Positions 50,464 through 51,505 of a DNA stretch of 64,000 nucleotides are shown piece after piece. Within the stretch, counting starts at the first letter, position 1. Each line of letters opens with the position of its first letter. Under the pieces are notes generated by a model. It did not search any database and had not been told where the DNA came from. It saw only the letters and a program-made list of their open reading frames with translations. This DNA is from Gammaproteobacteria bacterium (lineage in GTDB: Bacteria > Pseudomonadota > Gammaproteobacteria > SZUA-152): assembly GCA_011321815.1 (NCBI GenBank), contig DROS01000026.1, forward strand, positions 54 through 64,053, read 5' to 3'. The position numbers were made by a program, and so were the translations under genes.

Positions 50464-50551
50464 GGAGAGCTGGCTGAGTGGTCGAAAGCGGCGGTCTTGA
50501 AAACCGTTGACGGGAAACCGTCCGGGGGTTCGAATCCCTCGCTCTCCGCCA
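50464..50551 (+). tRNA. tRNA-Ser(TGA)
   Basis: GGAGAGCTGGCTGAGTGGTCGAAAGCGGCGGTCTTGAAAACCG...GGTTCGAATCCCTCGCTCTCCGCCA; long variable arm. Confidence 0.97.
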
Positions 50552-50599
50552 TAGGCGTTCGGAATTTTGTGATAAAAACGCAGAATTTCGACAACAAAC

Positions 50600-50638
50600 A
50601 AAATAGGATAGCGGGAAAACCCGCTATCCTATTTTTTT
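50600..50638. terminator. Bidirectional terminator inside the element
   Basis: AAAATAGGATAGCGGG-AAAA-CCCGCTATCCTATTTT. Confidence 0.85.
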
Positions 50639-50674
50639 GCACGGAATAATAGGAAGTTAAGGTGTCACTCCCCA

Positions 50675-50974
50675 TTACATATCGATATACGAAATGATGT
50701 CCATGCTTTGGTGGGGTAACCCGATGATCTCGATTCCCTCTTCACCAAGAAGATAGAACACAATGTGCTGCCCTTCAGGGAAACTAAAATAGCCGGGCTT
50801 AACATCATCACGGGTTTTACCCGCGCGGGGGTTATTCGCAAGCCAACTAAAGCGATCGATAAGGGCACGTGTATAGTGGTCTGCCTGGTCAACGCCCCAT
50901 TGCTCGAAGGTATATAACCAAATGGCTTCCAGCTCAGCGATAACACTCTGCCTAACCGTATAGGCTGGTTTCAT
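50675..50974 (-). CDS. parE: ParE-family toxin
   Basis: [42 protein letters not shown]. Confidence 0.9.
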
Positions 50975-51216
50975 TTCAGGTGCTGCTTGTGCATATTCTG
51001 AAGAAATGTCTCGCCATCAAAGTCGCTGGCCACGGGACTATTTTCACCAGCCTGTAGCTTGGCTCTCAACACCTCCAACTTTGCTTCGTTCTCTTCCAGG
51101 CTGCGCAGACCTGCTCGAACGACTTCGCTGATGGACTGAAAGCGTCCCTGGCGAATTTTTTCGGTGACGAATTCGTCAAAATGTTCACCCAGGGTGACAG
51201 AGGTATTTCTCGGCAT
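50971..51216 (-). CDS. parD: ParD-family (CC2985-like RHH) antitoxin
   Basis: NTSVTLGEHFDEFV...GRFQSISEVVRAGLRSLE; ATGA overlap with the toxin. Confidence 0.92.
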   Translation of the reverse strand: MPRNTSVTLGEHFDEFVTEKIRQGRFQSISEVVRAGLRSLEENEAKLEVLRAKLQAGENSPVASDFDGETFLQNMHKQHLK

Positions 51217-51505
51217 GGAAAGGCTCCCGTAATTGATGTATTAAATATTAATACATCCTGCGGCGCTGTCAACAACACTAGGATATGAGCCATATATAAC
51301 GAATAAATCACCAATCAAAGATTGTCTTAACCTATTGATATTTAACTGCTATTGAGAAGCCATATCACAAATTTCCGAACGGCTAGCTCTCCGCCATATT
51401 TTTCAAGGTTTGACCCCTTTGTTTTTCCGCCATACGCAAAAAGAGGCCCCATTTGGAGCCTCTTTTCATTTGTCATATTGCAGCCGCAAATCGTGTATTG
51501 AATGT

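Follow-up and report, generated by a model that had tools for sequence, protein, structure and literature searches.

A transposase-less ParDE cassette at the 3′ end of a tRNA-Ser gene, a probable member of a family of DDE-type transposons

The window analyzed here is a stretch of 64,000 nucleotides from a gammaproteobacterial genome (contig DROS01000026.1 of assembly GCA_011321815.1; G000 below). At positions 50551-51386, at the 3′ end of a tRNA-Ser gene, it contains a small cassette carrying parD and parE. Judged by sequence comparison, this cassette is very probably a non-autonomous DDE-type transposon, that is, a mobile insertion cassette (MIC) or a miniature inverted-repeat transposable element (MITE) with cargo, and belongs to a family whose autonomous members encode a protein of the P0001 type. 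DDE transposition and a non-autonomous nature had been proposed in a preliminary description of the window. Both proposals are supported by the terminal inverted repeats (IRs), by an abutting duplication that also occurs at a non-tRNA site, by the lack of a transposase and by an autonomous relative with the same ends. The main interest lies in the family revealed rather than in the window copy, which is probably a stranded remnant or satellite. Genomes, loci and proteins are designated by our own numbers (G, L and P).

Ends, copies and target sites of the cassette

The intact tRNA-Ser(UGA) gene (anticodon tga; 50464-50551, plus strand; ARAGORN) is immediately followed by the left IR, the 23-mer TAGGCGTTCGGAATTTTGTGATA at 50552-50574, the inverse of which, identical at 21 of 23 positions, is found at 51363-51385. 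A degenerate form of the 23-mer matches twice in the window against 0.01 expected, and at least two matches occurred in none of 100 shuffles. Likewise, the direct repeat GCTCTCCGCCATA at 50541-50553 and 51386-51398 gives two matches against 0.06 expected, again in none of 100 shuffles. The cassette with IRs that had been described right after the tRNA-Ser CCA is thus bounded by repeats beyond chance, and its coordinates were right to within one base: the 21/23 match stands, whereas the right inverse lies one base earlier than implied. Both differences of the right IR from the left one recur as variants in other copies.

In its own genome the cassette is single-copy, and a search matched its two ends only. 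The wider census covered 401 genomes of the class together with exact-pattern scans. An exact-core scan of 185,579 genomes, one per species, returned 20 loci, about nine of which we estimate to be chance matches. Judged by four outer bases that the scan had left untested, 11 loci (in 10 records) are real, one (L038) is unclear and eight are chance-like. Together with the window and G010, the scan loci provide 12 left ends. Eight of them abut the CCA of a tRNA-Ser gene, with the anticodons tga, gga or cga, and the remaining four (G010, L032, L034, L036) lie away from tRNA genes. The preference for tRNA-Ser claimed in the preliminary description is therefore real, but it is not exclusive.

As the same description had suggested, copies with other cargoes were found in other bacteria. 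The genome G010, of the same genus as the window genome, contains a complete copy of 895 bp with perfect IRs and no tRNA nearby (L025:3221-4115). It carries a different ParD/ParE pair (32-37% protein identity to the window pair) and lies between the two copies of a perfect 9-bp duplication of unrelated sequence, AAATAATTT. Over 730 bp this element is 85% identical to L034:2198-3023 from a Thiodiazotropha metagenome-assembled genome (MAG), which also occupies a non-tRNA site. The element has therefore moved between lineages. Such likeness in unrelated lineages, at non-tRNA sites in both, points to a recent horizontal transfer and to another target pathway of lower specificity. Toxin-antitoxin (TA) pairs of the ParE type are present in five of six small or partial elements (window, G010, L034, L042 and, as Phd-ParE, L032); the sixth, L048, has two open reading frames (ORFs) without assignment.

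An A precedes every left end (12/12 in this subfamily, the four non-tRNA sites among them, and 6/6 in a sister subfamily described below) and a C precedes every right end (8/8 and 5/5). Simple insertion sequence (IS) relatives likewise begin with C before TAG. Counting these invariant bases as part of the element, we obtain ends of 24 nt (A or C plus TAG...) and a duplication of 9 bp. Five of 10 complete elements fit this model without a mismatch: the window cassette, G010 (AAATAATTT), G041 (TTCTCCGCC), and the MITE and element 1 of G403. The corresponding 11-bp duplication matches at 10 of 11 positions in G010 and G041. By this comparison, the target-site duplication is most likely the 9-bp CTCTCCGCC and not 11 bp. 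The preliminary description had correctly seen a duplication abutting the IRs, but its length of about 11 bp, or 13 bp with the following TA, fits less well.

In the window, the left duplication copy covers 50542-50550 (plus strand), corresponding to the 3′ acceptor strand, the discriminator G and the CC of the tRNA, and the right copy, recognized as a repeat match (9/9), covers 51387-51395 (plus strand). Between them lie the left 24-nt IR, A plus TAGGCGTTCGGAATTTTGTGATA, at 50551-50574 (plus strand; IR match and comparison with other copies), and the right one, C plus TAGCCGTTCGGAAATTTGTGATA on the minus strand, at 51363-51386 (IR match). With these ends, the cassette is 836 bp long, and parD and parE are its sole genes. 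Under the 24-nt-end model, the last base of the tRNA gene, the A at 50551, would be supplied by the transposon. The insertion had been placed exactly at the CCA end; it is indeed at the tRNA end, but on this model its point would lie inside the CCA, between C and A.

The 12 aligned left ends share the IR, an A-rich spacer and, in inverted orientation, a repeat of the inner IR half. In the window this repeat is the subterminal site CGCAGAATTTC at 50579-50589 (plus strand), kept in all 12 left ends and likely a second transposase-binding site. Farther inward, a hairpin with the core ATAGGATAG...CTATCCTAT occupies 50597-50638 (-27.4 kcal/mol, z -8.6) and is followed by T7/U7 on the plus strand; its core is found in 8 of the 12 left ends. 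The U-tract on the tRNA strand is present in the window and absent in G010. A consensus fold of the 12 left ends has 11 predicted pairs between the inner half of the IR and the subterminal motif. Because no compensatory changes were seen in this fold, it gives no evidence for an RNA element, and we read the subterminal repeats and the hairpin as DNA sites. Right ends share the IR alone.

In G036 and G403, tRNA-Ser genes are followed by a sister subfamily with the IR TAGCCGTT(T/C)(G/A)TAATTTTTGG.... Three of the 401 class genomes contain the junction pattern TCTCCGCCATAGSCGTT, with one match in G000, two in G036 and eight in G403, compared with a single match for the reversed pattern used as control. 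The eight junctions between a tRNA end and an IR in G403 lie at tRNA-Ser genes with the anticodons gct, tga, gga and cga, so that each of the four examined is occupied. Together with the 8 of 12 left ends above, this answers the earlier question whether other copies also sit at tRNA 3′ ends. Behind tRNA-Ser(gct), a 20.8-kb element, a 414-bp MITE, a 2.7-kb element and a 554-bp element are arranged head to tail, and two of their junctions read IR, GCTCTCCGCCA, IR. At the gga gene, tandem MITE arrays show a spacing of 425-426 bp. The occupied sites are located on G403:C1 at ~285.5-306 kb, 395.6 kb, 1943.3-1944.2 kb and 2227.4 kb (L155, L156, L163-L167). The 414-bp MITE is gene-less, and the 20.8-kb element, with a type I restriction-modification system, itself carries an insertion of an IS256-family IS.

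Autonomous relatives and their DDE-fold protein

The autonomous partner that the preliminary description had advised searching for was found in G041, a MAG. Two matching ends lie 16.3 kb apart on its chromosome, the left one directly after tRNA-Ser(gga) and the right one followed by GTTCTCCGCCA. An ORF of 626 amino acids (aa), P0001, starts 80 bp inside the right end and encodes a DDE-fold protein. The closest P0001 homologues with available upstream sequence, 76-91% identical, provide three cases. In L081 and L084, the upstream IR (one mismatch) is preceded by the reverse complement of GCTCTCCGCCA, and in L083 the IR lies at another flank. L081 is 3.3 kb long and has the IR directly upstream of the P0001 homologue. 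G403, with its MITE arrays at several tRNA-Ser genes, also encodes the transposase, which is an indirect sign of mobilization in trans.

An AlphaFold model of P0001 was built from 26 sequences (pLDDT 80.4, pTM 0.85). When it was compared by VIA-align, the top 28 rows consisted entirely of retroviral integrases and DDE transposases, with Z scores from 12.4 down to 7.8 and ~140-280 residues aligned within residues ~224-597. According to the model, P0001 has an RNase-H-like catalytic fold of the DDE/integrase type and would catalyze transposition. The residues D233, D398 and D528 are invariant in the 26 sequences and probably form the catalytic triad; R535 follows D528 at +7. The N terminus contains several Cys-rich, zinc-ribbon-like motifs.

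We found 110 homologues of P0001 in a large protein collection, those with ~33% identity being ~590 aa long. One distant homologue carries the NCBI name 'IS1 family transposase', and one 90% cluster comprises 905 members on contigs of ~2-4 kb. Of 58 metagenomic loci, 38 show IRs of 22-54 nt, perfect or nearly so, on both sides of the homologous gene; for the rest, the automatic IR search gave no result in 19, mostly large elements or cut contigs, and a spurious one in L099. The bracketed elements are mostly 1.9-2.1 kb long, and their IR cores (C[TAG]AG[CG]CG.., ..GTGTTGA) resemble those of the window family. Their termini CTAGGCGTTCGC... and CTAGCCGTTCAC..., with inner ends ...GGTGTTGA, are recognizably homologous to the window-family ends. 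With crude boundaries, perfect duplications of 8-10 bp flank 5 of 25 such simple IS relatives; the scan gave no clear reading for the other 20, as the real ends of these IS extend beyond the perfect IR core. The ~590-aa branch (L094-L154) consists of plain ~2-kb IS with 25-nt perfect IRs that are abundant in sediment and soil metagenomes. Many of the ~2-kb copies lie within longer imperfect inverted contexts (...AGGGYCAGNAATGG joined to CGAGCCG...), as if inserted into a repeated palindrome.

The transposase family is rare: among 400 genomes of the class, seven contain it (a tally that includes G165 and G331, flagged as unpublished), and G000 is not one of them. A further branch on G359:C1 (L079, L080) comprises homologues of ~690 aa with a conserved small ORF upstream; no recognizable IR or tRNA was found within 20 kb of them.

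The full-length elements encode a second, distant paralogue of P0001 (~540-610 aa), recognized by homology, which lies inside the left end and reads inward. It is present in G041 (L053:3413-5239), G036 (L062:13509-15119, minus strand), G403 (L078:18697-19956, minus strand) and L087 (15851-17317, minus strand), and in partial form in L044, L037 and L032. These paralogues are 22-25% identical to P0001, and those of G041 and G036 match each other with an E value of 3e-24. The P0001-type genes, in turn, read inward from the right end. D233, D398 and D528 have their counterparts in all four paralogues, whereas D259 and E494 do not. Beside the left-end paralogue of G041 lies an ORF of 282 aa (L053:6025-6873) that recurs close to the paralogue in G403, L090, L080 and L085, and paralogue and ORF may together make up a two-transposase or transposase-plus-selector system. 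The L032 element (L032:470-1432) combines a truncated paralogue with Phd-ParE. ORFs that we take to encode an IS91-type transposase seem to interrupt or follow this element, and its far end was not found within 3 kb.

The 16.3-kb element of G041 bears defense genes, and its cargo comprises, among others, a type IV restriction-like Mrr-helicase, AbiH and a PDC-S64 candidate; G403 and L087 carry type I restriction-modification systems, G403 in addition an AAA_15 ATPase; and G036 encodes a Tle1-like phospholipase-domain protein (of this element, the 385-aa ORF alone was scanned with Pfam). No integrase (PF00589-type), Cas1 or TnsB domain was detected by Pfam among the ORFs of the elements in G041 (16 ORFs), G403 (13) and L087 (6). 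The ends are hence not restricted to integrase-bearing islands; such a restriction would have spoken against the transposon interpretation.

History of the tRNA-Ser site and alternative explanations

The empty allele, which the preliminary description had proposed to look for in relatives, was found in three genomes of the same genus (G006, G009, G003). Here, tRNA-Ser is unoccupied: its CCA continues directly into the native trailer TAC..., which is followed by a terminator hairpin and a Sel1-repeat gene. In the window, this native sequence and the synteny with the relatives resume only at 51426. Repeat search and comparison with relatives define a segment outside the transposon, at 51397-51434 (plus strand), which consists of a 29-nt filler (51397-51425) and, behind it, the tRNA end for a third time, now only in part (TCCGCCATA, 51426-51434); this partial repeat was overlooked in the preliminary description. 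The first 10 nt of the filler, TATTTTTCAA, equal the start of a different type of island at the same tRNA in G001. A similar island start is present in G013, G007 and G005; in these relatives the left end of this island family reads CCA followed by TAT(T/A)(T/A)TCAATGACTTAC. The islands at this tRNA in G005 and G001 have 62-nt tRNA repeats at their borders, as integrase islands typically do. The filler is probably what an integrase-type island left behind when it was almost completely deleted. Given this relic and the ParDE cassette, which is the tRNA-proximal one of the two, the site was visited by two kinds of element, and in this genus tRNA-Ser(tga) is a hot spot for multiple elements. The insertions of the relatives (L029 on G005:C62, L030 on G001:C135, L027 on G013:C76, L028 on G007:C48) comprise islands of ~9.5 kb and 4 kb with the 62-nt tRNA 3′ repeats and insertions of 2.5 kb and ~0.2 kb.

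Of the alternatives to a P0001-mobilized transposon, the best-surviving one, which we still consider unlikely, is a genuine transposon with terminal IRs that is moved by another enzyme, such as the left-end paralogue alone, the 282-aa protein or an unseen transposase, while P0001 acts otherwise, for example in target selection. It gains some weight from the two paralogues of the autonomous elements, both of which keep the three acidic residues, from the recurring 282-aa ORF and from the differences between left and right ends in terminal base (A or C) and subterminal structure. However, the simple 2-kb IS relatives encode a P0001-type protein alone between homologous IRs, and in the short locus L081 the IR lies directly upstream of the P0001 homologue.

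Very unlikely in our view is an origin by a tyrosine or serine recombinase, in which the direct repeats would be attL/attR remnants of an island that lost its integrase, like a cis-mobilizable element (CIME), and the IRs would be core-type binding sites on either side of the crossover segment. Integrases classically target tRNA 3′ ends, and in att sites of the lambda type the element-side half-sites would also look like IRs abutting a direct repeat. The islands with 62-nt repeats at the same tRNA-Ser in G005 and G001, the relic of such an island beside the cassette, and a match of 7 of 13 bases upstream of the right-hand repeat to the tRNA T-arm all fit this view. Against it stand the lack of an integrase domain in the elements of G041, G403 and L087, and the unrelated perfect duplication away from any tRNA in G010, which homology-dependent recombination would not produce, since its direct repeats stem from attP-attB identity and so always derive from the tRNA. 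The DDE-fold protein at the end of the autonomous elements and the ordinary IS with homologous ends among its distant relatives argue in the same direction.

Casposons, which encode Cas1 and PolB, have terminal IRs and target duplications, and some archaeal ones insert at tRNA 3′ ends with duplications of 14-15 bp; a miniature casposon-like element moved by a Cas1 casposase has a negligible probability and was rejected, as neither hallmark domain was found in the scanned ORFs of the autonomous relatives and the duplication is 9 bp.

Several observations weigh against the preferred interpretation, a non-autonomous member of the P0001 transposon family. No transposase model of Pfam or NCBIfam fits P0001: Pfam returned sub-threshold matches only (DUF6399 with E 0.0045 and two weaker ones at a limit of E 1), and NCBIfam no match. 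A Foldseek search against the PDB gave no match at E <= 0.001, and its best rows, the Tn5 and ISCth4 transposases, had low TM scores. Neither G000 (99% complete, 109 contigs) nor G010 encodes a P0001 homologue, so that mobilization in trans is not demonstrable there and the window copy appears stranded. The 9-bp duplication is imperfect in 5 of 10 elements (L048 4/9, L034 6/9, G036 4/9, and elements 3 and 4 of G403 6/9 and 4/9), and in the window itself the 9-bp and 11-bp models are indistinguishable. Compared with the empty allele, the window insertion comprises the element and its duplication plus the 29-nt filler and the third partial repeat, and the history of the site is therefore more complex. 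Finally, all evidence is comparative, and no transposition was observed.

Proposed mechanism and comparison with known elements

Based on these comparisons, we propose that the transposase cleaves the two strands with a 9-bp offset at the very end of the tRNA-Ser gene (CTCTCCGCC followed by A). Joining of the element at the cut would duplicate the 9 bp and place the insertion between the last C and the A of CCA. The first A of the element would then restore the encoded CCA, and its hairpin, likely a bidirectional terminator for the tRNA and parE, would replace the displaced tRNA terminator. Since the element starts with A and brings a hairpin that can replace the terminator, the tRNA gene should stay functional. 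The window copy could move only with an enzyme supplied in trans, and ParDE would serve as addiction or defense cargo.

A more far-reaching scheme, which we put forward tentatively as a serious possibility short of being probable, regards the cassette as a satellite of undescribed complex transposons. These would use two paralogous DDD-type transposases, one per distinct end, insert precisely to the base between C75 and A76 of tRNA-Ser, rebuild the CCA with their own base, supply a replacement hairpin terminator and form tandem arrays that seed defense islands (type I/IV restriction, AbiH, ParE TA). With the same reserve, the paralogue or the 282-aa protein might be the target selector in this two-transposase arrangement. 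If true, the family would represent a compact, protein-only, site-specific DNA insertion system.

MICs and cargo MITEs, such as MIC231 of the Bacillus cereus group, are transposase-less, share the terminal IRs of an autonomous element, are flanked by a target duplication and carry one or two passenger genes. The window cassette resembles them in all these respects and in its presumed mobilization in trans, but differs in ends that derive from another, apparently undescribed transposase family, in its strong preference for tRNA-Ser and in the recurring ParE-type TA cargo.

By analogy, Tn7 is the closest counterpart in strategy and tycheposons are the closest in ecology. Tn7 and Tn7-like elements insert at attTn7 downstream of glmS, some target tRNA genes, and they use TnsA/B/C/D and produce a 5-bp duplication. 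Shared features are the 3′ end of a conserved essential gene as a safe harbor, asymmetric multi-site ends, defense cargo and the need for more than one element-encoded protein. In contrast, the window family inserts inside the last bases of the gene, duplicates 9 bp instead of 5 bp and encodes two paralogous DDE-fold proteins instead of the TnsA/TnsB pair, and no domains of the TnsA/B/C/D type were found. A Tn7-like reading was rejected, given the 9-bp duplication and the absence of TnsB-type (rve/Mu), TnsA and TnsC domains from the scanned ORFs.

Tycheposons target tRNA genes, tRNA-Ser among them, and are mobilized by recombinases of the tyrosine (910/937) or large serine type; like the window family, they show tandem arrays at tRNA genes, cargo and degenerate members, and the term 'DDE' does not occur in the text that describes them (10.1101/2020.12.28.424599). 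The window family differs by the lack of a recombinase in the scanned elements, a DDE-fold protein, terminal IRs and target duplications. DDE transposons with sequence-specific targets are also represented by IS1202-family IS, which target dif/pdif sites (PMC10132070), and by the eukaryotic Dada transposons, which insert into small-RNA genes for tRNA or snRNA (PMC3706591). Their transposase families, hosts and targets are different, and in the parts of these two sources available neither is reported at a bacterial tRNA-Ser CCA end.

Our literature search found no description of the window family, and no mention of ISMhu11 or DUF6399. The family is apparently undescribed, although this status is provisional and set without comparison to ISfinder. 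Few bacterial DDE transposons are known to land harmlessly at one conserved site; Tn7 is the textbook case, and transposons of this kind are wanted as tools for placing DNA at chosen positions. The window family, with a different transposase lineage, appears to have found its own solution to safe landing: it uses the last bases of tRNA-Ser, repairs the gene with its own end and tolerates stacking. In addition to tyrosine-integrase islands, tRNA genes would thereby have another way of turning into hot spots for defense systems and TA modules, and the family suggests that minimal TA cassettes can be mobile units by themselves. For annotation, 'att-like' repeats of 11-13 bp at tRNA-Ser need not signal a lost integrase.

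The relation to IS1 appears limited to a weak N-terminal match. Between InsA and the zinc-ribbon and helix-turn-helix region of the P0001 family, hhalign reports a weak similarity (E 1e-3, probability 22%). The NF033558 model scores 41 bits with distant members, below its cut-off of 100, and does not match P0001 itself. The target duplication of 8-10 bp in the window family and the simple IS is close to the 8-9 bp of IS1. As a lead only, the nearest Pfam-bearing Atlas cluster carries DDE_Tnp_IS1 (score 0.86). On the other hand, P0001 is three times larger, its elements have cargo, a second paralogue and a site preference, and the IS1 catalytic domain (PF03400/InsB) gave no Pfam match in P0001 at E <= 1. 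The IS1A ends GGTAATG.../GGTGATG... are unlike the window-family ends (A/C)TAGSCGTTCGG.... A comparison with InsB of Escherichia coli IS1 showed no similarity (hhalign probability 0.16, with a single-sequence template of low sensitivity).

Regarding the cargo of the window cassette, parE (50675-50974, minus strand) encodes a toxin of 99 aa with a PF05016 domain (E 1.5e-15) and parD (50971-51216, minus strand) an antitoxin of 81 aa with a PF03693 domain (E 2.8e-27). These are the only two ORFs inside, as previously noted, and both domains exceed the Pfam cut-offs. parD lies upstream of parE with an overlap of 4 nt and, by sequence, the genes form a ParDE type II TA pair, with the function this would predict. 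At 51235-51272 (minus strand), a promoter-like site (TTGACA, 16 nt, TAATAT) overlaps a perfect palindrome with 10-nt arms (51235-51257), and the two probably serve as parDE promoter and operator.

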